From Nitrososphaera viennensis EN76 (GTDB lineage Archaea > Thermoproteota > Nitrososphaeria > Nitrososphaerales > Nitrososphaeraceae), in assembly GCF_000698785.1 (NCBI RefSeq), contig NZ_CP007536.1:2340001-2372000 (forward strand): a stretch of 32,000 nucleotides of DNA, in the 5' to 3' direction. The notes beneath the pieces were generated by a model. The model was not told the origin of the DNA. It saw nothing but the letters and a program-made list of their open reading frames with translations, and made no database searches. Position 1 is the stretch's first letter. The number at the start of each line of letters is the position of its first letter. Made by a program: the position numbers and the translations under genes. Below, piece after piece: positions 4,346-25,987 of the stretch.

Positions 4346-7300
4346 ATGCACGTGCAAGCTGCTGCCGACGTACAGGAGATATTCTGGGTCTCGTATACCG
4401 TGCTGGAAGTCAACCAAGGCGACAACCTAGAAGACGTCCTGCAGAAATTTGCGACCATAATCAACGTGCAGCTGACCCTGCAGGAAGACCAGAAATTCCC
4501 CTTCGTCCCGTTCAATGGCTTTGAAAACGCCAAGAAATCAAGCAAGGTGTTCCTGTACGGGCCAAGCGGGTGCGGCAAGTCAAAAGCCATCTTTGAAATC
4601 ATCCGGGAAAGAATAGCCCGGATAAAGCGCATCTACATCATAAACCCGAGGCAAACACTCGGGGGCGAATCGGGGAGAACAGCCCTCTCTAACCTGCTCA
4701 ACAAGGTCGGGCCGGAAGACGCGGTGGTCTGGGACAACTTTCCTGACGACCTTGTAAAAAGGGATATCAAGAGCGCGACAAGGGTGCTGGAGCTTGTCAG
4801 CTCAAGGGACCTGAACAACCTCCTGGTTGCGCTAAAGCCAAGGTACCTGGAGATCTACCGCGAGATCACCGACGCCGTCCCGGAATTCCACAGCGCCGAG
4901 ATATCCTACGACAAGGGCCGCTTCAAGAAAATCATTCAAGAGTATGGCGCGCAGATATCGCAGTTTCACCGGCTATACGAGGGCAACATAGCAAGCCGTA
5001 TAGAGGGCGTCTCCCGGGCGCTCTGGAGAAAAGAGCCGATACCGATAACCATACTTGATTATTACCGCGAGCTTTCCGGGAAAGAAGAACAAGGCGACAA
5101 TAAAAATTCCGTTAACGCGGTTGCAGAAGCAGAGAAACTCTTGCGCGCCGGCGACTATTACGAGAGCCAGTTTGCCTTCATCGCCCGTGCAGACGAGCGC
5201 CGGGAAGACGCCGAGTTCCTCTACACTCTGAAGCTGTGTTATGAGGCGGGCCTTGGCAGGACGTTTGGCCGCATAGAAAAGTTGCAAAAGGGGATATTTG
5301 GCAGCCTGCCGCCGAGGGACCCCCTGCGCAGGCTGGGCACGTGGGTCTACCTCTCCGGCCAGGACTATGCGATGCACGACGCCCGGAAGGACGCGATAAA
5401 ATTCAACGACCACGTGATGCTGAAAATCGTAAACTACCTTGTGGGCAATTTCCGGGATGTCCTTCCTGCAGAAAACAACCAGATCTATTCATTTGGGATG
5501 TTCCTGGGCAAGCACGTCCAGTTCGTACCGCGGGACACGTCGCAGCCTTTCCTTCCTGCCAGCGTTTACGGCTTTATGAAAGAGAATCGATATTTTACGA
5601 TGGGGTTTGGCCAGGGCGCCGGCTCGATCTTCCTTTCGCTGGACGAACCGCTCCAGCAAGGCATACTGCGGAGGGTGGAAGTGGACATCGAGTTCACGCG
5701 GGGTCTGTGCGAAAACCTGGGATCAAACTTTTCTCTGTTCGATTCGGAAAACCAGGGAAAAATCCTGGGCATGACAACAAGCGGCCTGCCGTTTGCAAGG
5801 TACCTTGGAGAAAGCCTTGGAACCCATTTTTTCTCCCTGCCCCTGAAGCTCAGGGAAGAAATTTCCAGGAGGGCCAGAAAGAACGTGCAGTTTTCAGACG
5901 GCCTGGGGATGGGCATGGGGTACATCATGCCTCTTCTGGATGAAAACTTGCGGCAGGATGCGTTCAAAAAGGCAGAAAATGACAGCGAGTTTACAAGAGG
6001 GCTCGGCTACGGCCTGGGCCGCAATTTTCCTTCAATTCCTGCAGACTTTAAAGCCAGGATCTTTGAACTTGTCGAAAAGGACCGGGAGTTTGCAAAGGGC
6101 CTTGGCTACGGCATAGGGTTTCAATTCGAATCATTCACTCCGGAATTCAAAGCCCGGCTGTTTGAGCTTGCAGAAAAAAACAGCGAATTTTCCTACGGCC
6201 TGGGCATCTTTTTTGGCTTTGCATTCTCGTACCTCTCAAAACAGATGCAGGATCAAATGCTCGGGGTGGCAGAGAGGCACAGCGAGTTTGCTTACGGCAT
6301 GGGCATGGGAATAGGATACCTTTTCGTATACCTGACTCCGGAGCTGCAAGGCGAGATTCTTCAAAAGGCAGGCAAGAACGCCAAGCTGACCTATGGGATA
6401 GGATCGGGCTTTGCTTTTTCATTCAAGAATTCGCCCCCGGAAGTCCAGGACGATATCCTTGCGCGGATTGAAAAGAACAGCGAGCTAACGTACGGCCTTG
6501 GCTACGGCCTTGGATATGTGTTTCCCTACCTGTCAGGCGAGCAGCGGGAACGCAGTTTCCAAAAAGCCGGTACGAACCCGCAGTTTGCAAAGGGATTTGG
6601 CATGGGCATAGGGCGAATTTTTGCGTACCTCGACAGGTTCCATGATGAAATCTTTGACAGGGCCCGGGCGAACCCGCATTTTGCAAAGGGTCTGGGGTCT
6701 GGCCTCGGGTACGTTTTCACTTATTTTCCGCCAGGCCTGCGCGAAAAAATCACTGCAAGGGCGGAGGCCAATCCAGAACTGACGTACGGCCTTGGCACCG
6801 GCTTGGGCTTTACTTTCTCTTATTTCAAAAAAGAGGATCAGGACCTTTTCTTTGAAAAGATAATACATGATGCCTATTTCGCCCGGGGCCTTGGCACCGG
6901 CCTGGGCTACGCCTTTGCCTATCTCCAGCCGGACACCCAGAAACACGCATTTGCCCGGAGCCATGAGAACGTGCAATTTGCGATTGGGATGGGCGAAGGC
7001 CTTTCCAGAATCTACTCCTATCTTGATGAAAAGACCCAGAATGAAATTCTCAAAAAGGCCGTTGCAGGAAGCGGCCTCGCAAGAGGCCTGGGCCGCGGTT
7101 TTGGCTCTGTATTTCCGTATCTTGATGCCGGCATGCTTGGAACCGCTGGCCGGCATGCAGAGACGGACGGGCAGTTTGCAAGAGGCCTGGGCGAGGGCCT
7201 CGGCACCATCTTTCCTTACCTGTCACCTGACACCCAAGCCCGCGCCTTTGAAAGGGCAAAAAATAGCGCCCAGTTTAACATAGGCCTTGGCACCGGCCTG

Positions 7301-8098
7301 GGCTACATCTTTGCCCATCTGACGGGTGACATCCAGACACTCATCTCTGCAAAAGCCCGGAACGACGCATCCCTTGCCCGGGGCCTCGGCACCGGCCTGG
7401 GCTACATCTTTTCCTATCTTGGCGGCACGCTCCAGAAAGATTTTCTCGACAGGGCAAAACAAGATCCGTCCTTTTCCCATGGCCTGGGCTCCGGCATAAG
7501 CTACGGGCTTGCTTACTGTCCAGATGACTTGAAGAAAGAGGTTGTCAGATATTCAAAGAGCGACCCGCATTTTGCCACCGGCCTCGGCACCGGCCTCGGC
7601 TACATCTTTCCATATCTTCCGGGGCCACTGCGCCAGGAATTGCTCGGCCTGGCAGAACAGCATCCAAGCTTTGCCACCGGCCTCGGCACCGGCCTCGGCT
7701 ACCACCTCCCGTCATTTACCGAGCAGCTGAAGGAGGAGATCATTGGCTGGATAGACAAGGACAGCAACTTTGCCACCGGCCTCGGCACCGGCCTCGGCCG
7801 CTCATTCCAGCACCTCGACGGGATAACGCAGCGGGGAATCCTCGACTGGATAGACAAGGACAGCAACTTTGCCACCGGCCTCGGCACCGGCCTCGGCCGC
7901 AACCTGCCTTCGCTTGCCGAGCAGCTGAAGGAGGAGATCATTGGTTGGATAGACAGGAACAACAGTTTTGCAACCGGCCTGGGGAAGGGGCTGGCCGACA
8001 GCTTTCAATACCTCGACGGCGAGCTGCAGCGCAGAATCGCGCTCTTGGCCCAAAAGAACCGCGCTTTTGCATCGTCCCACCAGTTCAAGATTAGCTAA
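4346..8098 (+). CDS. Giant P-loop NTPase with a C-terminal array of about 25 tandem 33-aa GLGxGLG repeats; function unknown
   Basis: The ORF is an uninterrupted 1250 aa. Walker A is LYGPSGCGKSKA (aa 70-81) and a Walker B-like motif is AVVWDNFPDD (aa ~126-135). A helical-looking middle region spans about aa 140-415. From about aa 416 to the end there are 33-aa repeats with consensus xFAxGLGxGLGYIFPYLxxxxQxxhhxxAxxNx. Confidence 0.85.
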   Translation: MHVQAAADVQEIFWVSYTVLEVNQGDNLEDVLQKFATIINVQLTLQEDQKFPFVPFNGFENAKKSSKVFLYGPSGCGKSKAIFEIIRERIARIKRIYIINPRQTLGGESGRTALSNLLNKVGPEDAVVWDNFPDDLVKRDIKSATRVLELVSSRDLNNLLVALKPRYLEIYREITDAVPEFHSAEISYDKGRFKKIIQEYGAQISQFHRLYEGNIASRIEGVSRALWRKEPIPITILDYYRELSGKEEQGDNKNSVNAVAEAEKLLRAGDYYESQFAFIARADERREDAEFLYTLKLCYEAGLGRTFGRIEKLQKGIFGSLPPRDPLRRLGTWVYLSGQDYAMHDARKDAIKFNDHVMLKIVNYLVGNFRDVLPAENNQIYSFGMFLGKHVQFVPRDTSQPFLPASVYGFMKENRYFTMGFGQGAGSIFLSLDEPLQQGILRRVEVDIEFTRGLCENLGSNFSLFDSENQGKILGMTTSGLPFARYLGESLGTHFFSLPLKLREEISRRARKNVQFSDGLGMGMGYIMPLLDENLRQDAFKKAENDSEFTRGLGYGLGRNFPSIPADFKARIFELVEKDREFAKGLGYGIGFQFESFTPEFKARLFELAEKNSEFSYGLGIFFGFAFSYLSKQMQDQMLGVAERHSEFAYGMGMGIGYLFVYLTPELQGEILQKAGKNAKLTYGIGSGFAFSFKNSPPEVQDDILARIEKNSELTYGLGYGLGYVFPYLSGEQRERSFQKAGTNPQFAKGFGMGIGRIFAYLDRFHDEIFDRARANPHFAKGLGSGLGYVFTYFPPGLREKITARAEANPELTYGLGTGLGFTFSYFKKEDQDLFFEKIIHDAYFARGLGTGLGYAFAYLQPDTQKHAFARSHENVQFAIGMGEGLSRIYSYLDEKTQNEILKKAVAGSGLARGLGRGFGSVFPYLDAGMLGTAGRHAETDGQFARGLGEGLGTIFPYLSPDTQARAFERAKNSAQFNIGLGTGLGYIFAHLTGDIQTLISAKARNDASLARGLGTGLGYIFSYLGGTLQKDFLDRAKQDPSFSHGLGSGISYGLAYCPDDLKKEVVRYSKSDPHFATGLGTGLGYIFPYLPGPLRQELLGLAEQHPSFATGLGTGLGYHLPSFTEQLKEEIIGWIDKDSNFATGLGTGLGRSFQHLDGITQRGILDWIDKDSNFATGLGTGLGRNLPSLAEQLKEEIIGWIDRNNSFATGLGKGLADSFQYLDGELQRRIALLAQKNRAFASSHQFKIS
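5591..8065 (+). repeat. In-frame tandem repeat array with 99-bp period, about 25 units
   Basis: I parsed the repeats by hand from the translation; 24 units are 33 aa and one is 32 aa. The DNA core ggcctcggcaccggcct(c/g)ggctacatcttt recurs at 99-bp spacing, for example near 6889, 7276, 7381, 7579, 7680, 7778 and 7877. Confidence 0.9.
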
Positions 8099-8129
8099 AC
8101 TTGCTCCTCACCTACTTATAAGCATCTGA

Positions 8130-8942
8130 ATGCAGATTAGCGGTGGCATGAGTTCGACAATTGAGGACGGCGGCGGTGACGATGATGATTATGGTGGAGA
8201 AGAAGGACTTGACGACTTTCCGATAGTGGGCTCTGCGCAGGAGATCCTGGACGACAAGCCATCAGCTTCATCATCTTCTTTTGACTTTCCCGCGGAGGAA
8301 GAAGTGTCCTTCTCTGGCAAGAGCGAGAACTATTGCGTGTGCTTCATAGACATGGTGAACTCGACCGTCGTCACGTCAGGGCTGGCCTCTGCCAAGCTCG
8401 TCAGGTACTACTCTATCTTCCTAAACGCCACGGCGGCAATCGCCAAGAACTTTGGCGCAAAGGTGATAAAAAACGCCGGCGACTGCCTGATATACTATTT
8501 TCCTGCCACGTCCGACCCCGCAAGCAATGCTGCATTCTCTGACGTGCTTGAATGCTGCACGGCCATGATAGACGCCAACAAGGTCATCAACGCCAGGCTC
8601 AATACAGAGGGCCTCCCGCCGCTCGGCTATCGGATAAGTGCCGATTATGGAAAGGTGGAAGTGGCCCGGTCGGCAACTTCCAACAGCGACGACCTGTTCG
8701 GGTCGACGATGAACCTGTGCGCCAAGATAAACTCAAAGGCCCCAAAGAACGGGGTGGTGGTAGGGGCAGACCTGTACAGGGTGATCCAGTCCATCCCCGC
8801 GGTCGCCGAGCTGTACAATTTTGAGCAGGTCTGCTCGTATCTGGTCGGCCCGGAGCAGCAACAATACCCCGTGTTTTCCGTCGCAAGGCGGCAAAAAAGG
8901 AACATCGTCAACCCCTTCAAGGTAATGCCTGCAAGAAGCTAA
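8130..8942 (+). CDS. Stand-alone class III nucleotidyl (adenylate/guanylate-type) cyclase domain protein with an acidic low-complexity N-terminus
   Basis: Class III cyclase motifs occur in order: CFIDMVNST (metal Asp), KVIKNAGDCLIYYF (second Asp), YRISADYGKVEVA, DLFGSTMNLCAKINS and NGVVVGADLY. The N-terminal ~60 aa are Asp/Gly/Ser-rich. The start could instead be the ATG at 8148, with a TATA-like cttataag at 8115-8122. Confidence 0.8.
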   Translation: MQISGGMSSTIEDGGGDDDDYGGEEGLDDFPIVGSAQEILDDKPSASSSSFDFPAEEEVSFSGKSENYCVCFIDMVNSTVVTSGLASAKLVRYYSIFLNATAAIAKNFGAKVIKNAGDCLIYYFPATSDPASNAAFSDVLECCTAMIDANKVINARLNTEGLPPLGYRISADYGKVEVARSATSNSDDLFGSTMNLCAKINSKAPKNGVVVGADLYRVIQSIPAVAELYNFEQVCSYLVGPEQQQYPVFSVARRQKRNIVNPFKVMPARS

Positions 8943-9032
8943 TACCCGAGTCCTAGGCATAAGAGGCCTTTATCTTTTCGATAACCCTTTCGTAATCCGG
9001 GCCCTTCTTCCTTGCGTACCTCTCCATCGCAG

Positions 9033-10715
9033 TCAGAGGAATCCCCCCATTGACACGGCAAGCCCCGCGAAGAACAGGTTGACCGCCGTGGCGTTGCGGC
9101 CGACCTGGTGCATGAACTTTTTCATGCCGTGCTTGTAGTTGTGCTGCCAGGTCTTGTAGATTATGCCGAATTGCTCGGCGGTCATGGCGCTTCCGATGTT
9201 GTAGAAATCCGACCTTTCGAGGAGGCCGATTGGCACGAACGTCAGCGGGGCCACGGCAAACCTGGAGCCCTCCTGCTCGCTTTCAATCTCGTGCAAAAGC
9301 CGGATTGTCTCCCAGCTGTCGTCAGGCGTCTCGTCGTTGTCAAGTCCCATTATCAGGCTAAAGGCGGGTATCCAGTAATTTTCGTTCAGCGTCTTGACGG
9401 CGGTCTTGACCACCCAGTGCCATTCATCCGGCTTGTACGGGGCAAGCTTGCGGTCGGCGTACTTGCCGATGAGCCTGACGCTCCCGGTTTCAAGGCCGCA
9501 CTGGATGCCGATAAAATTGCCCGGCCCCGCATTTATGATCCTTGACACGCTTGGGATCAGCCTCTCGTCGGCTATTGCCCCCGACAGTGTCCCGTGCGTC
9601 GGGTTGGTGTGCTCGACGCCGGTAGCCATAACGCCCCTGAACAGCTCCTCGATCGCCTCCCTGTTTGGCTGCATGTTCTTGCTGGAGCGGGGGTTCATGC
9701 CGTAGACGAAAATGTCGTCGCTGTGTATCCAGGCGTTTTTCAGCCCTCCGTACTTCATGTTTATCTCTATCTCCTTCTGCACCTTCTCGACAGGGTAGTA
9801 TCTCAGCGGCCTAAGGGTCACGTCGCAGAACTTGCACCCGCGCCCGCAGCCGCGCATCACCTCTATCATGCCGTGCATGCTGGGGTTGACTATGTTTGGG
9901 ATTTCTTCAATCGAAGGCTCGTTCCAGTAGTGCACAAACCTGCCGTGGTACGTCTTTTCTCCGCGCAGGAATTCCTTTATCTCCACCTTGAACTGGCTCT
10001 TCTTGAAGGGGTTGTTTGCCACGTCAAACTCGCCTCCGATGAGGGCGTCAAAGAACGGGCCTGCCGCGCCGTCTATCTCGGGGGCCATGCCGCCAAGCTC
10101 GCCTTCCAGGATGGCGTATATGCCGTATTCCTCTATCTTGGCCGGGTCGTAGTTGTACTGCCAGGTGCCGGACGCCCCGACAACGACCTTTGCCTTGCTA
10201 GAGTTTCTGGCCTTTGCGGCGTTTATCCTGCCGTGGAGCTCCCTGCTGCAGTATTCAGTGTAGGACATGAGGTGCCTGCCGTACGTAAATGTCATGCTGA
10301 CTGGCCCCATGCCGAGAGGGTCCATCTCGTAGACGCCCACCGCCTCCGTCTCCGGTCCGATGAATTCCCCGACGTGGTCGGGATGCACGACTGCAACGTC
10401 GCCCGCGCTGTAGCCACTCTTCAACAGCGCCGCCTCGACCTTCCTCAGGCCGTACGGCGCGTACATGGCCCTCCCTCCTGCCGCCTGCGCGATGGGGTTG
10501 CACAGGAAATTGAAAAGCGGCATCGGGGTAACCTGGTTTCCAAATACCAGCCTTGACAGAGACCTGCTGCCGGTCATGTAGTACCAGAAAGAGTTGGCGC
10601 CATTGCCATCATTTTGCTCCAGAGCCGGAAAACACCCAAGAAACGATGCCAGGGAGATTCCCCTGTACGGCGACATGAGGGTGCGGTCGGCGGTCAGGAC
10701 GATCTTGGGCGCCAC
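9033..10715 (-). CDS. Large radical SAM enzyme with an N-terminal extension (B12-binding-like layout)
   Basis: The 560-aa ORF has the canonical CxxxCxxC cluster motif MRGCGRGCKFCDV, about 290 aa from the N-terminus. The + strand ORF 9594..10556 is an antisense shadow. Confidence 0.85.
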   Translation of the reverse strand: MAPKIVLTADRTLMSPYRGISLASFLGCFPALEQNDGNGANSFWYYMTGSRSLSRLVFGNQVTPMPLFNFLCNPIAQAAGGRAMYAPYGLRKVEAALLKSGYSAGDVAVVHPDHVGEFIGPETEAVGVYEMDPLGMGPVSMTFTYGRHLMSYTEYCSRELHGRINAAKARNSSKAKVVVGASGTWQYNYDPAKIEEYGIYAILEGELGGMAPEIDGAAGPFFDALIGGEFDVANNPFKKSQFKVEIKEFLRGEKTYHGRFVHYWNEPSIEEIPNIVNPSMHGMIEVMRGCGRGCKFCDVTLRPLRYYPVEKVQKEIEINMKYGGLKNAWIHSDDIFVYGMNPRSSKNMQPNREAIEELFRGVMATGVEHTNPTHGTLSGAIADERLIPSVSRIINAGPGNFIGIQCGLETGSVRLIGKYADRKLAPYKPDEWHWVVKTAVKTLNENYWIPAFSLIMGLDNDETPDDSWETIRLLHEIESEQEGSRFAVAPLTFVPIGLLERSDFYNIGSAMTAEQFGIIYKTWQHNYKHGMKKFMHQVGRNATAVNLFFAGLAVSMGGFL

Positions 10716-12239: not shown

Positions 12240-12782
12240 TTGCCGGTCAAAGTTATTGCAAGCAGGCGCGTCTACAGGGGCGCCATCTCGCTCCGCAAGG
12301 ACAGGTTCTCGATAAACGGCGGGAGGGTGGTCGAAAAAGAGATAGTCGAGCACCAGCCGTCTGTCGGCATCATCGCTGTAACAGGCGACGATAGCATCCT
12401 CCTCGTGAGGCAGTACCGGCGTGCCCCGGACAAGACGCTGCTAGAGATCCCTGCCGGCAAGATAGAGAAGGGCGAGACGCCGAGGCAGGCGGCTGTTCGC
12501 GAGATGGACGAGGAGATCGGATACGCCGCCGGCAAACTGGAGCCCTTTCTCAAATGGTACCTTGCGCCCGGCTATGACACCGAGCTCATGCACCTGTTTG
12601 TCGCCACAAACCTGAAGAAAATAAAGAAAAGGCGCGCGATGGACGACGACGAAGATATAGTCACGAAAAAGGTCAGGCTTGCCGCCGCCGTGAAAAAGTG
12701 CCTCAACGGCGAGATAGAGGACGCCAAGACCATAGCCGCAATCATGGCGTACGCTTCTTCCTCATCATCAAAGCCACTCTGA
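12240..12782 (+). CDS. Nudix hydrolase, ADP-ribose pyrophosphatase-like
   Basis: The Nudix box is GKIEKGETPRQAAVREMDEEIGY, and the NudF-like context LLVRQYRRAPDKTLLEIPAG is present. The start codon is TTG. Confidence 0.85.
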   Translation: MPVKVIASRRVYRGAISLRKDRFSINGGRVVEKEIVEHQPSVGIIAVTGDDSILLVRQYRRAPDKTLLEIPAGKIEKGETPRQAAVREMDEEIGYAAGKLEPFLKWYLAPGYDTELMHLFVATNLKKIKKRRAMDDDEDIVTKKVRLAAAVKKCLNGEIEDAKTIAAIMAYASSSSSKPL

Positions 12783-13784
12783 CTGGACCGGCTGGTACAC
12801 CTTTTTCCTTGCGTCCTCGAGGCTGCTGCGCTCTATTATCAGCCCCTGCCTCTTCAGGTCGTCGACTGCCGCCTGCACAGTCCTCCTCGGCAGGTGGCTA
12901 AGGCTGATGAGCTCGCCCTGCTCCACCGGGTGCTTGGTCTTTATTATGTAGTAGATGAACTTTGACGCCGGCCCGCCCTCCGGGTCCTTGCGTATGTACG
13001 AGACGCCAAACGCCGATTTTGACAGAAAGCCCCTCCTCTGCGACTCGACGGAAGCGATTGCGTCCGGGTGGACCTCTGCAAGGTTGACGCGCTGGCCAAA
13101 CTCTGCCATCAGGGCAGACTGCTGCGATTCAAGCGGCGCCTCAAAGATGAACGTGCTTGGCGGGTACTCGTTTGTCATGGCGCCTACAAAGCTCCATTTT
13201 ACGAGGCCTTTTTCGTCGTATATGCCGACGTTATAGCCCTCGTTTGCCTCGATGACCACCTTTTTAGAGTCGAGTTTCACTGCCTCGTCGATCTTTTTCA
13301 GGGTGTCGTCGATCCCAAGCTGGTGCCTTGGGTCCTTCTTGCCCACCTTCCACTGGTATTCCAGGCCTGCCGCCTTGATTGCCTCCGTTATCTTTTTCTT
13401 CTGGGCCATCGGCAGATCGATGCTGCTCTCGCCTATCTCGACCATGTCAAAGCCGACCTTTGCAGCCTCCCTTGCAAACCTCTCAAGCGAGCTCTCTACT
13501 ATGGCAAATTCGGTTATCGTGCTTCCCGTCGAGACCTTGATGCCAAAGCCGTGGTAATAGTCGATCTTTTTCTTCAGGCTTTCGTCAGAGACGAGCATAG
13601 GGAGCGCCCCGTACACCTTGACGACGTCTACAAAGGGCGCTATCGTCGCAAAGTTCTCCCTGTCCAGCCCCTGGAACTTGTCGATCGTGCATGTCAAGCC
13701 TTCCTTGCGGGGCTTTTTTGCATCCATCCTGTTCTTGGCAAGGCCGTCGAGCATAGTTCTATATGATATATGCAGATTCTGCAT
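12768..13784 (-). CDS. comA: Phosphosulfolactate synthase (ComA) family enzyme fused to a C-terminal winged-helix domain
   Basis: Strong resemblance to ComA from memory: VEIGESSIDL, VVIEANEG and IFEAPLESQQSALMAEFGQRVNLAEV...SVESQRRG. An extra ~80 aa tail, LSHLPRRTVQAAVDDLKRQGLIIER, looks MarR/ArsR-like wHTH. The true start may be Met11 at 13754. Confidence 0.85.
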   Translation of the reverse strand: MQNLHISYRTMLDGLAKNRMDAKKPRKEGLTCTIDKFQGLDRENFATIAPFVDVVKVYGALPMLVSDESLKKKIDYYHGFGIKVSTGSTITEFAIVESSLERFAREAAKVGFDMVEIGESSIDLPMAQKKKITEAIKAAGLEYQWKVGKKDPRHQLGIDDTLKKIDEAVKLDSKKVVIEANEGYNVGIYDEKGLVKWSFVGAMTNEYPPSTFIFEAPLESQQSALMAEFGQRVNLAEVHPDAIASVESQRRGFLSKSAFGVSYIRKDPEGGPASKFIYYIIKTKHPVEQGELISLSHLPRRTVQAAVDDLKRQGLIIERSSLEDARKKVYQPVQSEWL

Positions 13785-19248: not shown

Positions 19249-20081
19249 ATTCAAGGATGATAGCCGCGATCTTCATAATTGCGGGGCTTGTGGCAGTGGT
19301 CTATGTCTTTTCCATCGTTCCATACCTGTTTGGCTCCGCAAGGCCGGCCTCGGTGCTGCCTGTCATGCAGATCCTTATCCCTGCCCTGGCTTTTCCGCTC
19401 ATAGCGGTTCTCGTGTTTCTCGTGCCCAGGCGGCGGGTTGCAGCTCAGGCGGCGGTACCTGAACACAAGGTTCGTGACGAGGCAGAATACCGGCACAGGA
19501 TCAGGTCCCTGTGGTCTGGTACTGCCGCAGGCTTTTTTGCAGCGGCGATACTCGTGAGCCTGATAATCGGGGGCGACGCGCTGCTCGGGCTTCCCCTTGG
19601 CACCTTTTATTCCATAATCGGCATCGCGATGGGCGGCCTTGACGTTTCTACTGCGATATTCTTTGGCGCTGTCCTGCATTTGATGATGGGGACCCTGATA
19701 GGCGCGGTGTTTGGCTACCTCACGGCTGTGGTGGGGCCCTTCAACATAACCGGCATGGCAAAGGGGACGGGAGTCGGCATCCTGGCGGGCTTTATCGCGT
19801 TCTCTGTGCTCTTTGTCCCGCTGACCCGGTTTGAAGTGGAACCTTCGCTCGTGAGGATTCTTGCAGGCATTTATCCGCCCGGCACTTCTGCAGACGTCCT
19901 CCAGAACAAGGCCGTCGACCTAATGTCGTCGGTTCTTGCAGGCTCTATCCTCCTGCACGTGGTTTACGGCGCCATCCTAGGCTCGATCACCGCGCTCCTT
20001 CTTGGATTCCCCGAGGGCGAAAAAAAGGAGAAGGAAGACTACAAAACCGACGCCCCTAATCATCGCCTGACAAAGACGTAG
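19245..20081 (+). CDS. Polytopic membrane protein (about 7 TM, Gly-rich helices), hypothetical
   Basis: I chose the start at Met17 of the listed ORF because of the ATGA overlap with the upstream gene, and aaggaggaggg lies upstream. It has multiple long hydrophobic segments. Confidence 0.7.
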   Translation: MNSRMIAAIFIIAGLVAVVYVFSIVPYLFGSARPASVLPVMQILIPALAFPLIAVLVFLVPRRRVAAQAAVPEHKVRDEAEYRHRIRSLWSGTAAGFFAAAILVSLIIGGDALLGLPLGTFYSIIGIAMGGLDVSTAIFFGAVLHLMMGTLIGAVFGYLTAVVGPFNITGMAKGTGVGILAGFIAFSVLFVPLTRFEVEPSLVRILAGIYPPGTSADVLQNKAVDLMSSVLAGSILLHVVYGAILGSITALLLGFPEGEKKEKEDYKTDAPNHRLTKT

Positions 20082-20327
20082 AGCTGAAATAACGCGCGCG
20101 CGTGCCTGTACTTAACAACACAGACACATGCCTGTAATCTAGAAAGCCAAAATCCTTGGATCTCTATGGGAATAGTGGTAATTGCAAAAGCTACTAAAAA
20201 TTGGTGGGGAAACATCAAACTATTCTTATTGGCACATTACAAGGTAATCTCTCTATTTTCTCTACGATGTTTATGACTGATCCGTTAGAGGAAATTATTA
20301 GTCTCAGCCTTGCATAACAAATACAGG

Positions 20328-20447
20328 ATGGACAAGGAACGTAGTAACAAAGATGAACCGGTGACAATCATTGTTACTCGGACGGCCAAAAGAGGCAAAA
20401 TTAGAGAATTTGAAGAATGGCTGGACGGCTCAAAGACCCTCCTCTAA
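20328..20447 (+). pseudogene. 39-codon remnant resembling the N-terminus of an ABM (antibiotic biosynthesis monooxygenase-like) domain protein
   Basis: My own translation gives MDKERSNKDEPVTIIVTRTAKRGKIREFEEWLDGSKTLL*. The VTxxVxRxxKxGxxxEFEEWL pattern is typical of ABM/DUF-type N-termini. It is truncated and overlaps the next ORF. Confidence 0.3.
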
Positions 20448-21440
20448 GAGAGATCGCAATAGGTCACACCACAATAGCTCTTTCGTACAAGGACGGAAAA
20501 TTTGGAGCAATATCGAACATATGTAATCACGTAGGCGGACCTTTGGGTCGCGGACGATTCGATGGTGACTATGTTGTATGCCCATGGCATAACTGGAAGT
20601 TTCACAGAATGACTGGATTTGGTGAGCCAGGTTTCGAAGATGATCGTGTACCACAATATGAGCTCAAGATAGAGAATGGGAATCTCTACATCAACTTCCA
20701 ACCGGTTACGGAAAGAAACAAGCTTCAGCATGCTCCACACCGTCTATCTAGGCCGGTAAAGCGCGAGGAGGGGCCTATCAGGGTTGTTGGCATATCTACA
20801 ACTGCCACGGACTCAAAAAATCCCAGATATTCCACATCTGACAAGCTGCTCGAAATTGCAATAGAACATGCAAGGACAGTTCTAGGAGCACAGACCATTC
20901 TTATTCGGTTGAATGACCTGAAATTTCGAAATTGCGAGGGGTATTACTCCAAGGCTGCCAGGGCATGCACCTGGCCCTGCTCTATTACCCAGATGGACAA
21001 AACTGACGAGCTTGATCGCGTTTACGAAGCATTGGTGCACTGGGGAGACGTTATCATAGTTTCAACCCAGATTAGATGGGGTGCTGCCAGCTCATTGTAT
21101 TACAAGATGGCGGAAAGGATGAATTGCATTCAAAATCAAATCACGATTAGCGACAGGGTTCTGATCCAGAATAAGGTTGCGTCATTTATCTAACCGGAGG
21201 ACAGGATAACATACAGGATGTTGCAGGCCACATGCTCGGATTCTTTGCAGAGCTCGGCTTCGTGTTCCGCCGTTTCCATATATTGCTCATTCCAGAGGAT
21301 GGTCTGCTGAGGACATGGAGGACAACATTGCATACGTGGAAAGGACGACGGATCTGCATGACGGGGCAAAAGACCTTGTGAGACGATGCATAGAAATGGC
21401 AGAATTAATTCTAGGAAAGAAACTATCTGAGGAAAAATAG
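20417..21440 (+). pseudogene. Rieske [2Fe-2S] domain fused to an NADPH-dependent FMN reductase / iron-sulfur-flavoprotein-like domain, disrupted by two 1-nt frameshifts
   Basis: Frame 1 (20417-21193) carries the Rieske motifs CNHVGGPL and CPWHNWKF, then the flavodoxin-like IRVVGISTT...VIIVSTQIRWG, and ends ...VASFI*. Translation continues in a second frame from 21193 (TGGQDNIQDVAGHMLGFFAELGFVF). It continues in a third frame from 21267 (PPFPYIAHSRGWSAEDMEDNIAYVERTTDLHDGAKDLVRRCIEMAELILGKKLSEEK*). Confidence 0.7.
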
Positions 21441-21874
21441 TCCGCCCGGGAAGGAAGGCACAAGCATTGCATATCGAGCAACGAGATAATAATGCAGGCC
21501 AATAGCTCTGGGAATAATGTAAACTGCGGTGCAATGACAGGCAAATCAACAGACCGGGAAAAATACCTGTTGCCACATTCCATAGAATGTCCCACGTAAC
21601 TTGTCCTTTTATCTCGACAAAAAAGTGATGAACAAAGAGATGTTTGGCTCGAGAATCATTGAATTCAAAGAAAATGGACACAGTTTATCGCTGACTAGTG
21701 CTTTTTGTTTTCTCTAACACCTCTTTTGCCCCTGTAATTAGTGAGGCCTATGTCCGCAGCAGTAGATTTGATACATTTCCTTTCCATGGCATAGTCACCT
21801 TTACTCTGGTGTCTTTCAATGTTCTGAAACACTGCTGTATATCTCGGCTACCTCCAAGGTTAATGAATAATACA

Positions 21875-22198
21875 CTAACCAGTGTCAATCGAGATTTCCA
21901 GAGTTTTTTCATCGATAATGACGGGATATGAATGCAGATTGGTGACCCAATCCGTATCAAGAGAGGCTTTTGCTGTGCGTATATCAAATATTCCCTGATG
22001 CCAGGGGCAAACCAGGTTGTAATCTTCTTCTAAAATTCCTTCTTCCAGCGGGCCTCCTTCGTGCGAACATACCGAATCCATGGCATAGAACTTGTCCTTT
22101 ATTTTTGTCAATACAATTGATTTGCCGTTGACATCGACTTTCACGAGTTTGCCCTCTTGCACATCATCCTTCTTTAAAGAAATTTTCGAGACGGTCAC
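21875..22198 (-). CDS. Rieske-type [2Fe-2S] ferredoxin
   Basis: The 107-aa ORF has a GTG start and the motifs CSHEGGPL and CPWHQGIF, about 19 residues apart. This layout matches small oxygenase-associated Rieske ferredoxins. Confidence 0.8.
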   Translation of the reverse strand: MTVSKISLKKDDVQEGKLVKVDVNGKSIVLTKIKDKFYAMDSVCSHEGGPLEEGILEEDYNLVCPWHQGIFDIRTAKASLDTDWVTNLHSYPVIIDEKTLEISIDTG

Positions 22199-22455: not shown

Positions 22456-22980
22456 CTATTTTTTGCGCCTGTCAAGTACAACGACAACTACGCCTGCTAT
22501 CATTGCCATAATGCCTGCGATGACTGTTCCGACGCCTGCGATGACTCCGCTGAACATCTCTGTGTTAACGTTGTCCTGGCCCACGCCCGGTATGTAGCCG
22601 AGCACGATGTCTATTGACGTGTCCGTGCCGCCGTTGTTTGTGACAGTCAGCCTGTGGCTGCCTGCCTGCGCGGGCACCGTCCCTTCTGCCAGCGTCTCGC
22701 TAAACTCTTTGCTCAGGACCTCGCTTCCGTCCGGCCCGGCAAGGACTGCCGTCATGGGGACGGAATTTCTCGCCGAGACCACCACCGAAAGCGTCCTTTC
22801 TGGGTCTGCGACATTGAACTCGGCAGACGCGGACCTGCCTGCGGCAAGCGACACTTCCTGCAATATCGTCGTGTCTTTTTGCAGCTGCTCTGCTATCGGG
22901 AGCGCCCATACCACGGTCAGCGCGATGCCTATCGCAAAGAGCGCCGCGCCGCCTATCAGGACATAGTAGCCGCGTTTCAA
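22456..22980 (-). CDS. Hypothetical protein with N- and C-terminal TM helices
   Basis: The 174-aa ORF has the TM segments YYVLIGGAALFAIGIALTVVWAL and GVIAGVGTVIAGIMAMIAGVVVVVL, followed by RRKK. The extracytoplasmic middle is beta-rich. Confidence 0.6.
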   Translation of the reverse strand: MKRGYYVLIGGAALFAIGIALTVVWALPIAEQLQKDTTILQEVSLAAGRSASAEFNVADPERTLSVVVSARNSVPMTAVLAGPDGSEVLSKEFSETLAEGTVPAQAGSHRLTVTNNGGTDTSIDIVLGYIPGVGQDNVNTEMFSGVIAGVGTVIAGIMAMIAGVVVVVLDRRKK

Positions 22981-23014
22981 CGATTGTGTTATGTATGTCT
23001 GTGATCCTTTGTTA

Positions 23015-24397
23015 TTAACCTAATGTGTCTTGGGCGGCAAACTTTTCGATTATCCTGCCCATGCATTTCGTGCACTTGTTCAGGAGGTCTATTCTCGCAA
23101 ACTCGTTTGGCGAGTGGATGCGCGCAAACATGTACGTGCTCCCGACGGATATGCAGGGCGCCTTGAGCACCTTGACAAACGAGTACATCGGGCCGGTGCC
23201 GGCAGAAGACACGCTCCGTATGGAACTGCCAAACGCCTTCCTTGCCGCCTCGTCCACCTTTTTCACGAACGGGTCGGAGATGGGAGTCCTTGCCGCCGCC
23301 TCGCCGTGGATGAAATTGACCTGTATGTCTGAAAAGCCGTGGTCCTTCAGGTGCCTTTTCAGCCGCGCCAGCTGCCTTTCAGGCACCATGCCCGGCACGA
23401 GGCGGAAGTCGATTTTTGCCCGCGCCCTTGCCGGGAGCACCGTTTTTGCTCCCTCGCCGATGTAGCCCGAGTCAAAGCCGGCGATGTTGCAGGTAGGCAT
23501 CCCGACAAGCGCCTTTTTGGCGTCCTTGCCCCGGGCGCCTGCCACAAAGCGCCTGATGCCGTACTCGTTCTTGAATTCCCCCTCGTCAAACGGCTCTCTT
23601 GAAATGACCGCAAGCTCTTGCTTTGTAAACGGCCTGACCTCCTTGTACCAGTCCTTTATCGTGACCCTGCCTGACTTTTCGTCGCGCATCGTCGATAGCG
23701 CCGACACAAGCCGCCACGCCGGGTTTTCGATGAGCACCGCAAGGCTGGAATGCGCGTCCCTCGACGGTCCTGTTGCAATGAGCTCGACGTACAGGAGGCC
23801 CTTCATGCCGAGGCTTATTATCGGCCTGTCCTTTGCGTCGACGTAGCCAAACTCCCATATCACGCCGTCGCACGCAAGTTTTTCTTCGTATTTTTTCAGG
23901 TACTGCTCGACATGCACGCTCCCGACCTCCTCCTCTCCTTCCACCATGAACTTGATGTTGCAGGGGACGTCGCCAGTCTCCTTCAGGAAATACTCGACTG
24001 CCTTGATGCGGGTTATCAGCTCGCCCTTGTCGTCCGCCGAGCCCCGCCCAAAGACCTTGTTGTCCTTGACGGTGCCGCTGAACGGCTCGTCCTCCCACAG
24101 CTCCAGCGGCTCCTCCGGCTGCACGTCGTAGTGGTTGTAAAAGAGAAGCGTCTTGGCGGCAGGGTTTGCCCTTGATTTCACTTCGCCATAGACGATGGGC
24201 GGCACGGTCTTGTCGTCATCGTCGAGGTACAGCACCTCGGAGTTGATGCCTGCCTTTTGCATCATCTTGGCGACAAGGTTTGCGCATTCAACGAGGCCGA
24301 CCTTTTTTGCCGAGACGCTCGGCTGCCTGATTAGCGCCTGCAGGTCCGAGATCAGGTCGTTCATTCCGGCGTCGACGAGGGAGTCTATCGTCATCAT
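23015..24397 (-). CDS. M20-family metallopeptidase (ArgE/DapE/CPG2-like dipeptidase/deacylase)
   Basis: Motifs are LLFYNHYDVQP, GRGSADDKG and MVEGEEEVGS. I set the start at MMTIDS (24397). The listed 5' extension to 24469 runs through a TATA-like box (24425-24432) and into a MITE-like element. Confidence 0.88.
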   Translation of the reverse strand: MMTIDSLVDAGMNDLISDLQALIRQPSVSAKKVGLVECANLVAKMMQKAGINSEVLYLDDDDKTVPPIVYGEVKSRANPAAKTLLFYNHYDVQPEEPLELWEDEPFSGTVKDNKVFGRGSADDKGELITRIKAVEYFLKETGDVPCNIKFMVEGEEEVGSVHVEQYLKKYEEKLACDGVIWEFGYVDAKDRPIISLGMKGLLYVELIATGPSRDAHSSLAVLIENPAWRLVSALSTMRDEKSGRVTIKDWYKEVRPFTKQELAVISREPFDEGEFKNEYGIRRFVAGARGKDAKKALVGMPTCNIAGFDSGYIGEGAKTVLPARARAKIDFRLVPGMVPERQLARLKRHLKDHGFSDIQVNFIHGEAAARTPISDPFVKKVDEAARKAFGSSIRSVSSAGTGPMYSFVKVLKAPCISVGSTYMFARIHSPNEFARIDLLNKCTKCMGRIIEKFAAQDTLG

Positions 24398-24444
24398 CAA
24401 TAGTCGGTAACACTCAAGATATTGAAAATAAAGGTTGCTTTCAG

Positions 24445-24603
24445 GTACACTGTTAAGTTGGCTGCGCATTTTGCCCTTTTTATTCGGATGTTAAGTTACG
24501 GATGGTTTTTTGGCATGGTGAACACCTGTACGTCGCACAATATCACCCGCAAGTTAACGCCTGGCAGAAAAGATGGAAATCAGCAGCCAACTTAACAGTG
24601 TAC
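24445..24603. mobile_element. MITE-like non-autonomous element, 159 bp, with 21-bp perfect terminal inverted repeats and a 6-bp target-site duplication
   Basis: The left TIR is GTACACTGTTAAGTTGGCTGC (24445-24465). The right TIR (24583-24603) is its exact reverse complement. Direct TTTCAG flanks lie at 24439-24444 and 24604-24609. There is no internal ORF, and a subterminal TGTTAAGTT copy lies at 24489-24497. Confidence 0.65.
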
Positions 24604-24610
24604 TTTCAGG

Positions 24611-24682
24611 GGCTCTGTTAACTTATCGTTTGCTCAATGATATATGAGACAGATGCCTAGCCGACGGTAAATTAACAGAGCC
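24611..24682. repeat. Inverted repeat GGCTCTGTTAA / TTAACAGAGCC with 11-bp arms and a 50-nt spacer
   Basis: I read it directly at 24611-24621 and 24672-24682. It shares the CTGTTAA core with the adjacent MITE termini. Confidence 0.4.
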
Positions 24683-25093
24683 TCTTACGGGCTTTTGCTC
24701 TTCCAAAATACATAACTCGCAGCAAGCACAATTCCCACAAAAATTAGCACCAACGGAATAATGCTATCATCTAGACCGAATGAATAAGGATAAAATTGTA
24801 TGATAGCTCCTATGATTATCAAGAGAAAGATAGAAAGCAGTATTGGATCGCGAAAAATAGCATAATAGATGCCTTTAGATAACTCTTCATCTTGTAATTT
24901 TCATACATATTCTCTTGTAATCAGGTTCGGTTATTGCAATCTGCCATTAAAAGTCATCAGATTGACACAGCCAAAATACGACCCGATCAGAATTTGCTAG
25001 CATGCGCCGCGCCGTTACAGCCTTTCAAACGGCAATCATCAACCGACAAGGAAGGATAATAACAATATTACACTCTCGTAGTAGAGCTACTCG

Positions 25094-25448: not shown

Positions 25449-25805
25449 ATGGCAAGTAGTAGTAGCAGTACTAGCCTTCAAAATTCAAAATGGCAAAGCT
25501 GCATAGATGCCTGCATGCGCTGCGCCGAGGCGTGCGAGTTCTGTGCTACGTCTGACCTTAAAGAATCGGACGTAAAGATGATGGCAAGTTGCGCCCAGAT
25601 AAACAGGGAATGCGCGGCCGTCTGCTGGACTTCTGCATCGCTGATGTCGATGGACAGCCAGTTTGCAAAGCAGTTCTGCGACCTGTGCGCGACTGTCTGC
25701 GACGCATGCGCAAAAGAATGCAACCGGCATACCGTCGACCACTGCAAAATGTGCGCAGAGCAGTGCCGCAGCTGTGCCGACGAATGCAGGCGCATGACGA
25801 AATAA
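25449..25805 (+). CDS. Cys-rich four-helix-bundle metal (copper)-binding protein, DUF326 family
   Basis: It has repeated Cx2-3Cx3Cx2C patterns (CIDACMRCAEACEFC, CAQINRECAAVC, CDLCATVCDACAKEC, CKMCAEQCRSCADEC). These are typical of DUF326/YhjQ-like proteins. Confidence 0.8.
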   Translation: MASSSSSTSLQNSKWQSCIDACMRCAEACEFCATSDLKESDVKMMASCAQINRECAAVCWTSASLMSMDSQFAKQFCDLCATVCDACAKECNRHTVDHCKMCAEQCRSCADECRRMTK

Positions 25806-25852
25806 AGACTGCACAGCCTGTTCATGTCAAAATAACAGGAGTGATTGCATGG

Positions 25853-25987
25853 ATGGCTTTCAAGTGCAAAAAATGCGACATGGAATTTGACGACAAGGAG
25901 CATCTAGAGCGCCACAGGCAGGTGCACGGCAGAAAGCCAAAGGTGCGCTATGCCGGCGAGATTAACTTTGACCATGTGGGAGTCTAG
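25853..25987 (+). CDS. Small classical C2H2 zinc-finger protein (44 aa)
   Basis: MAFKCKKCDMEFDDKEHLERHRQVHGRK... fits C-x2-C-x12-H-x3-H exactly. AGGAG lies about 12 nt upstream. It is the 3' portion of the listed mixed ORF 25589..25987. Confidence 0.6.
   Translation: MAFKCKKCDMEFDDKEHLERHRQVHGRKPKVRYAGEINFDHVGV

Follow-up and report, generated by a model that had tools for sequence, protein, structure and literature searches.

What does a giant P-loop nucleoside triphosphatase (NTPase) with a long tandem repeat array do beside a small class III nucleotidyl cyclase in an ammonia-oxidising archaeon? The question is raised by a locus of Nitrososphaera viennensis EN76 that lies within a stretch of 32,000 nucleotides (contig NZ_CP007536.1, positions 2,340,001 to 2,372,000, forward strand), referred to below as the window, in whose numbering all coordinates are given. 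Open reading frame (ORF) A, 1250 aa long, encodes the NTPase together with its repeats, and ORF B, which encodes the cyclase, follows 31 nt downstream on the same strand. A first-pass annotation, made from the sequence, had proposed that the two genes form a sensing and signalling pair, either defence-related or environmental. The comparison with related loci described below indicates that they are probably one three-module signalling enzyme divided by gene fission, and the evidence leans to ordinary signalling, in view of the housekeeping context of the locus and the lack of a conserved effector gene.

Linkage, fusion and fission of the modules

Three hidden Markov models (HMMs), representing the N-terminal NTPase domain (NTD), the repeats (REP) and the cyclase (CYC), were built and scanned over the six-frame ORFs of 41 related loci and the window. 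Practically every locus whose sequence reaches far enough downstream (approximately 30) has the three modules on one strand in the order NTD, REP, CYC. All three are contained in a single ORF of 1572–1732 aa in L008, L012, L014, L016, L025, L029, and L032; a three-module fusion is interrupted by the contig end in L026 and by a frameshift in L036, which brings the fused loci to at least nine. L005 (Nitrosarchaeum limnium), L009, L015, and L017 have a fusion of REP with CYC, while the split found in the window, with NTD-REP and a separate CYC, recurs in L007, L013, L019, L021–L024, L028, L030, and L033, where the two genes lie approximately 50 nt or less apart. The repeat region of a few loci is fragmented into several ORFs. 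The same NTD-REP-CYC arrangement is present in eight independently called proteins of 1230–1746 aa (P0197, P0201, P0205, P0207, P0209, P0213, P0217, and P0246).

Such three-module fusions in other genomes (Rosetta-stone evidence) imply a joint function of ORF A and ORF B, and the functional pairing proposed in the first pass is thus borne out by synteny in approximately 30 loci and by single-ORF fusions in many of them. When the NTD was placed on a neighbour-joining tree (calculated without bootstrap), fused forms were scattered among split ones, and three paralogues from different clades are present in one Nitrosocosmicus metagenome-assembled genome. There is one clear exception, the most divergent locus L037, in which a TPR-rich protein (5476–10544 of that locus) replaces the glycine-rich repeats and no cyclase is present. 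ORF B had been described as a stand-alone cyclase; it is a separate ORF here but is the detached domain of a three-module protein and not truly stand-alone.

The 30–90 residues ahead of the catalytic domain are poorly conserved save for the motif [YF]-x-[DE]-[FY]-P-h-h-(G), termed here the D-F-P motif. It sits in the linkers between REP and CYC of the fused proteins (L008, L009, L012, L014–L017, L025, L026, L029, and L032) and in the N-terminal tails of split cyclases, where it reads LDDFPIVG in the window. Many proteins of the same cyclase family carry a receiver domain (REC) behind the cyclase and are called CYC-REC proteins below. The strict form of the motif was found in 33 of 56 REC-less cyclases vs. 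5 of 53 CYC-REC proteins, and the loose form in 51 of 56 vs. 7 of 53, with a Fisher p of 3e-8 that is indicative only, the sequences being phylogenetically non-independent. The motif is missing from the unlinked CYC-REC proteins (L042 and L043), and variants of it occur in linked ones (L018 and L020). We infer from this distribution that the motif would be a docking or tether element kept after gene fission. In one clade, the module-linked cyclase itself has a C-terminal REC (L018:14062–15396, L020:14242–15465, and L021:7685–8896), and such an enzyme could integrate the input of the NTPase-solenoid with a two-component phosphorylation input.

Anatomy of the locus and its three modules

The features of the locus are as follows, with the source of each assignment in brackets:

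4346–8098, + strand: ORF A, 1250 aa, predicted STAND-like NTPase with a 25-unit alpha-solenoid repeat array (ORF reading; matched by both the NTD and the REP models)
4346–4519, + strand: N-terminal small alpha/beta subdomain, aa 1–58, conserved in the family (AF2 model)
4520–5584, + strand: nucleotide-binding domain (NBD), helical domain and winged-helix-like module, aa 59–413 (AF2, Foldseek)
4559–4582, + strand: Walker A or P-loop, GPSGCGKS, aa 72–79 (direct sequence reading)
4724–4750, + strand: Walker B strand, VVWDNFPDD, aa 127–135 (sequence; model strand 126–132)
5366–5380, + strand: YAMHD, aa 341–345, directly behind a beta-hairpin (family alignment, AF2 model)
5585–8056, + strand: 25 tandem 33-aa GLGxGLG repeats, aa 414–1237 (period analysis, AF2)
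7636–8031, + strand: two copies of a 198-nt, two-repeat block with 74% DNA identity (DNA comparison)
8099–8129, + strand: 31-nt spacer between ORF A and ORF B, containing TTATAA (sequence)
8130–8942, + strand: ORF B, 270 aa, class III nucleotidyl cyclase, detached output domain (Pfam PF00211)
8208–8231, + strand: LDDFPIVG, ORF B aa 27–34, in an acidic low-complexity tail, candidate docking peptide (motif distribution)
8319–8828, + strand: cyclase catalytic domain, ORF B aa 64–233 (Pfam, alignments)

The product of ORF B matches AIC17076.1 of N. viennensis (270 aa, "putative adenylate cyclase (modular protein)") at 100% identity, and the exact sequence of ORF A had no match in the protein collection searched. 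Public records differ in the start of the cyclase, which is 270 aa long in one and 264 aa in the other (RefSeq; Met7, at 8148). The TTATAA box of the spacer lies at 8119–8124, which is 24–29 nt upstream of Met7, and may be an archaeal TATA box that gives the cyclase its own promoter and a leaderless mRNA besides read-through from ORF A.

Walker A and the Walker B-like motif, both reported in the first pass, were confirmed at aa 72–79 and 127–135. In the NTPase family, G72, S74, G77, K78, and S79 of Walker A are invariant or nearly so, and W129, D130, N131, F132, and P133 of Walker B are invariant. The AF2 model of the domain, based on a 28-sequence alignment (pLDDT 87, pTM 0.86), has a P-loop alpha/beta core with Walker A behind strand 67–71 and Walker B on strand 126–132. 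The small subdomain in front of it is modelled with strands 14–21 and 44–46 and helix 28–38, and S16, N40, V41, Q42, and P52 are conserved there in the family alignment. The helical region that was expected behind the core extends over approximately aa 190–415 in the AF2 secondary structure, and the model also contains the helix, beta-hairpin, and helix unit typical of winged helices. Y341, M343, H344, and D345 of the YAMHD motif, which follows the hairpin 335–342, are invariant or nearly so in the alignment; this motif may correspond to the MHD motif of NB-ARC winged-helix domains, a likeness that serves as a lead only.

A Foldseek search of the PDB with the NTPase model placed Apaf-1 first (E 4e-6, TMq 0.48, approximately 450 columns), with SAMD9, MalT, EfAvs5 (a SIR2-STAND protein), NLRP2/3, SSO1545, CED-4, and Avs4 among the other high matches; the top STAND alignments span about 440–460 columns. 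The AAA+ proteins Clp, RuvB, Orc/Cdc6, and DnaA rank among and below these matches. The layout of STAND and NLR-type proteins suggested in the first pass is therefore supported by fold (Apaf-1, SAMD9, MalT, Avs5, and NLRPs), but no curated profile reaches its threshold, and NCBIfam gave no STAND profile match for ORF A. The most consistent Pfam match is PF01637 (archaeal ATPase), sub-threshold in 26 of the 28 NTD members with a best E of 4e-6. AAA_16 (10 members), nSTAND6 (nine members), and nSTAND5 (three members) were also found below threshold, and AAA_22 recurs at that level. On the predicted model, the N-terminal domain of ORF A is STAND-like by fold and architecture and belongs to a family outside the current profile libraries.

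A profile search with the N-terminal 430 aa of ORF A against 1.84 billion cluster representatives recovered 253 relatives at E <= 1e-3. The named hosts are Nitrososphaera, Nitrosocosmicus, Nitrososphaeraceae, Nitrosarchaeum, Nitrosopumilales, and unclassified Thermoproteota, and the family is restricted to ammonia-oxidising archaea, a range that rests on those sources that name the organism. Distant relatives of the NTD have an N-terminal SIR2_2 domain (P0297), a methyltransferase (P0331), or DUF4062 (P0017), and these partners, together with a C-terminal TPR array, point to STAND-type modular behaviour. As a separate observation, the distant relative P0241 has a weak C2H2-type zinc-finger match at its end, and a 141-aa ORF of the window (25562–25984, + strand) gives a borderline C2H2 match (E 2.4e-5, 25.0 bits; cut-off 25.2).

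The repeat array of approximately 825 aa described in the first pass resolves into 25 in-register units over aa 414–1237 with a period of 33, one unit having 32 residues, and the consensus N-x-x-F-A-x-G-L-G-x-G-L-G-x-x-F-x-Y-L-x-x-x-x-Q-x-x-I-x-x-x-A-x-x. The residue autocorrelation at lag 33 is 0.35 vs. 0.072 +/- 0.009 in shuffled sequence (z about 32), and it is also high at lags 66 and 99. In the AF2 model of aa 401–1250 (pLDDT 90.6, pTM 0.91), the array forms an unbroken alpha-solenoid in which each unit consists of two helices of approximately 12 residues, with the GLGxGLG segment in the first, and the alternate glycines would form two small-residue stripes permitting tight helix packing. 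The array had been called novel, and the searches agree: it has no Pfam match, HEAT and ARM included, and no PDB match at E <= 1e-3 in Foldseek, where the best were the HEAT karyopherins, CAND1, and mTOR (best E 3.5e-3, TM <=0.18). The GLGxGLG repeat is thus a previously uncatalogued 33-aa unit. A nine-repeat query returned six matches, all of them archaeal, a weak test of restriction in which only 8000 word-seeded candidates were scored. Homologues vary in repeat number, with 12–26 HMM-detected units. In the DNA, the repeats can still be made out only at the last units. The last four arose when a two-repeat (198-nt) block was duplicated, and they preserve a trace of how the array grew by tandem duplication.

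The class III cyclase recognised downstream of ORF A in the first pass was confirmed by Pfam, in which ORF B matches PF00211 (Guanylate_cyc) over aa 64–233 with 30.9 bits vs. a cut-off of 21.9, and it aligns with CyaB of P. aeruginosa (3r5g) at E 6e-7. Both metal-binding aspartates claimed earlier are present, D74 in 117 of 121 relatives (the other four being gaps) and D118 in all 121. The adenine-type substrate-specifying pair K114 and D188 is kept in 121 of 121, and the transition-state asparagine N195 in 118. The canonical transition-state arginine, in contrast, is replaced by lysine (K199), as it is in 119 of 121 relatives, so the motif set is not fully canonical. The GD motif and R168 are invariant over the 121 cyclase relatives, and a single chain carries all the catalytic residues, as is the case for class III enzymes that are homodimers. 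A homologue without catalytic residues, the outcome that would have counted against the first-pass proposal, was not what proper alignment gave, the residues being kept in 117–121 of 121 relatives. Judged from these residues, ORF B is apparently a competent adenine-type cyclase; the Lys/Asp pair predicts ATP as the substrate, and because of this pair the product is most probably cyclic AMP (cAMP).

Proposed mechanism and its competitors

The three modules suggest the following mechanism, modelled on STAND proteins whose working is known and on class III cyclases, which are active only as dimers. The STAND-like AAA+ NTPase, with its NBD, helical domain, and winged helix, would act as a nucleotide-dependent switch, the 25-unit solenoid as a sensor arm binding a ligand or partner, and the homodimeric class III cyclase as the output. 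At rest, the protein would be held closed by the NTPase. A ligand on the solenoid would bring about nucleotide exchange and oligomerisation, and oligomerisation would pair two cyclase domains and thereby create inter-subunit active sites that produce cAMP. In N. viennensis, where the cyclase is a separate polypeptide, it would be recruited probably via the acidic D-F-P motif of its N-terminal tail, and the cAMP would be read out by receptors encoded elsewhere. Physiological or environmental signalling is favoured as the purpose, with the module as one of several inputs to the thaumarchaeal cyclase family and receiver domains as another; this role is preferred over defence because the context is stable and housekeeping in kind, no effector is present, and the cyclase family is shared with receiver inputs.

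Several points weigh against this account. No curated STAND, NACHT, NB-ARC, or AAA_16 profile is over threshold, and the NTPase sequence profile, when compared with PDB sequences, retrieved P-loops only, mainly those of ABC transporters and helicases. The output lies C-terminal to the repeats, the usual STAND order being effector, NTPase, and sensor, which makes proximity-induced dimerisation less obviously transferable. Neither a ligand nor a cAMP receptor was found, and with lysine in place of the transition-state arginine (K199) the cyclase activity is putative. The STAND architecture, the weak PycC matches, the SIR2-bearing relatives, and the several paralogues per genome would fit a conflict system too.

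The last of these points leads to anti-virus defence, the foremost competitor, which is nevertheless unlikely. It holds that an NLR- or Avs-like STAND protein with a diversifying solenoid sees a viral protein and raises a cyclic-nucleotide alarm, in the manner of Pycsar or Pucsar, for an effector encoded elsewhere. The STAND-like fold speaks for it, with Avs5 and Avs4 among the Foldseek matches, but no PADLOC Avs or NLR model matches, and a further difference from Avs and other antiviral STANDs is that only the 58-aa subdomain precedes the NBD, SIR2_2 being found only in distant relatives. The PADLOC model mad8 matches 21 of the 28 NTD members (best E 1e-9), the distant NTD relatives carry SIR2_2 or DUF4062, two to three diverged paralogues are possible per genome, and the repeat region evolves apart faster than the NTD. 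On the cyclase side, twelve PADLOC models of PycC match ORF B, with E down to 1e-12 (46 bits); these models are themselves class III cyclases, any class III cyclase would be expected to give such matches, and the PDB neighbours of ORF B are ordinary adenylate and guanylate cyclases. Defence systems that use purine cyclic nucleotides (cNMPs) do exist, according to the Pucsar preprint, and ORF B resembles Pycsar and Pucsar in being a small class III-type cyclase. It differs from them in having no adjacent cNMP effector, a purine-type Lys/Asp pair, a housekeeping context, and an obligatory giant NTPase-repeat partner, and its family also occurs in two-component receiver fusions.

The genomic neighbourhood argues against defence as well. 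The module's neighbours in the window are genes for a UbiB/ABC1 kinase and a radical-SAM protein; the window also encodes a thymidylate kinase, Hsp20, a NUDIX protein, ComA-MarR, ABC-transporter parts, a Rieske protein, an M20 peptidase, an aldo-keto reductase, TrmB, and a class I (Trp/Tyr-type) tRNA synthetase. Profile annotation gave no mobile-element or defence genes in the window. The gene order is syntenic in the genus Nitrososphaera: L006, L007, and L013 keep the series UbiB, module, radical-SAM, NUDIX, and ComA, and L022 and L034 keep part of it. A check of the neighbourhood had been recommended in the first pass, and it found the gene pair syntenic in related archaeal loci, the window and its orthologous loci being stable housekeeping neighbourhoods. 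When the flanking ORFs of 45 loci were clustered (within 5 kb), no further gene travelled with the module apart from lineage-specific synteny blocks, and no cNMP-activated effector gene was adjacent or conserved at any of them. Of the two purposes that had been left side by side, defence-related or environmental, the evidence therefore leans to the latter as ordinary signalling.

A bolder form of the defence reading is equally doubtful. It sees the module as an archaeal NLR-like immune or danger sensor, with paralogous diversifying solenoids, each for another invader or stress ligand, with a dimerised cyclase recruited by the D-F-P motif, and with cAMP or another cNMP as a cell-wide alarm. If true, the output would be a diffusible second messenger rather than a toxin; no STAND immune receptor before it would have been coupled to the synthesis of cyclic nucleotides, and archaeal class III cyclases would gain their first functional role.

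Two further explanations are improbable, each more so than defence. One regards the cyclase homologue as non-catalytic or differently catalytic, that is, as a nucleotide-binding or dimerisation module that gives no cNMP signal. The substitution of K199 for arginine in 119 of 121 members, the modest Pfam score of 30.9 bits, and the low PDB identities are in keeping with it, but the same positive charge is available from lysine, and the two aspartates, the Lys/Asp pair, the asparagine, the GD motif, and R168 are invariant over the 121 sequences, which argues that the chemistry is retained. The other, of about the same slight probability, takes the NTPase-repeat protein for a HEAT-like platform, driven by ATP and acting as scaffold or chaperone, that localises the cyclase or assembles it with partners while regulation takes place elsewhere, for example at receiver domains. 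The HEAT proteins, which the solenoid resembles, typically serve as scaffolds, some linked cyclases have their own REC input, and Pfam recognised no ligand-binding domain; yet sensing falls to the repeat arm in those STAND proteins whose mechanism is known, and a further input domain is lacking in most linked cyclases.

That the two genes are mere neighbours and the NTPase an RNA helicase can be dismissed as highly improbable: the weak PF00910 (RNA_helicase) matches of 15.9–18.1 bits vs. a cut-off of 21.5, with which some database names agree, span the P-loop only (aa 68–103 in ORF A), and SF3 helicases are not at the top of the Foldseek ranking. The database names "RNA helicase" and "GTPase SAR1" were rejected as P-loop-only annotations, and chance adjacency of the two genes was rejected by the fusion of all three modules in many genomes.

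Flanking genes, known systems and significance

Three observations concern the flanking genes in their own right. ComA, a (2R)-phospho-3-sulfolactate synthase (12768–13784, - strand; E 9e-64), is apparently fused to a C-terminal MarR/TrmB-type winged helix, an unusual enzyme-regulator fusion for an ammonia oxidiser that has a counterpart of 83% identity in L013. The radical-SAM protein (9033–10715, - strand; 560 aa) is convergent to the cyclase and gives a weak match to TIGR04013 (B12-binding/radical SAM); it is 77% identical to the protein at the same position in L022 and L034, and L007 and L013 have a paralogue with 30% identity upstream of the module. The GC content is 0.44–0.47 at 20000–22000 and 24000–25000 of the window vs. 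approximately 0.55 elsewhere. The low-GC stretches are associated with ORFs without a Pfam match (21193–21684 and 22459–23019) and a Rieske-domain protein (20414–21190); they have no counterpart in the related loci examined and may be recently acquired or fast-evolving.

Among known systems, the module shares with the STAND NTPases (Apaf-1/CED-4, NLRs, MalT, SAMD9, and Avs) a P-loop NBD, a helical and winged-helix-like module, and then a long repeat array. It differs from them in the absence of a supra-threshold profile, in its new 33-aa GLGxGLG unit, and in an enzymatic output placed after the repeats or in a separate gene. The two-helix hairpins in a long solenoid recall the HEAT and ARM solenoids of karyopherins, CAND1, and the mTOR HEAT regions, but the unit is 33 aa long, carries four glycines at alternate positions of helix A, and has no Pfam HEAT or ARM match. 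The thaumarchaeal CYC-REC proteins belong to the same cyclase family, with 50–60% identity and the same invariant residues, including lysine for arginine. Some of them lie directly downstream of NTPase-repeat genes (L018, L020, and L021), while most stand alone (among them those of L042 and L043); they differ in having a C-terminal receiver domain as input and in lacking the D-F-P motif.

There is a bacterial precedent in composition. In actinobacterial proteins of the Rv0386/Rv1358/Rv2488c type, a class III cyclase, an NB-ARC-like ATPase, TPRs, and a LuxR helix-turn-helix (HTH) domain are joined in one chain. The archaeal module is like the Rv0386 type in combining a class III cyclase with a STAND-type ATPase and helical repeats; it is unlike that type, which is bacterial and has an N-terminal cyclase and TPRs, in that the cyclase is C-terminal or detached, the repeats are of the GLG kind, and the hosts are archaea. 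The LuxR domain gives the Rv0386 type a DNA-binding output, and Pfam found no TPR or HTH match in ORF A or ORF B. In the first pass no described system of this kind was known, and this holds in part: no description of an NTPase-repeat-cyclase module was found in the limited full-text collection searched, but cyclase-bearing STAND ATPases are known from Actinobacteria. STAND ATPases that pair a repeat sensor with an enzymatic output thus form a kind already known, and what differs here is an NTPase family beyond the curated profiles, an uncatalogued glycine-rich repeat, an output placed after the sensor or detached from it with a tether motif, and the restriction to ammonia-oxidising archaea.

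Little is understood of how archaea signal by cyclic nucleotides. According to a review, very few predicted archaeal adenylate cyclases are of class III (PMC8646023). The Nitrososphaeraceae, a family of soil ammonia oxidisers, have many class III cyclases that are merely listed in genome papers (PMC13577086). The eLife paper on conflict systems mentions neither DUF4062 nor Thaumarchaeota. The obligatory tie between one cyclase subfamily and a lineage-specific STAND-type ATPase provides a concrete input-output module, and the natural split and fused forms of the pair suit interaction studies, in which the short candidate docking motif can be mutated. The module would extend the STAND paradigm of sensor, nucleotide switch, and proximity-activated effector to second-messenger synthesis in archaea, and it could reveal by what means nitrifiers of global importance perceive their environment or their viruses.

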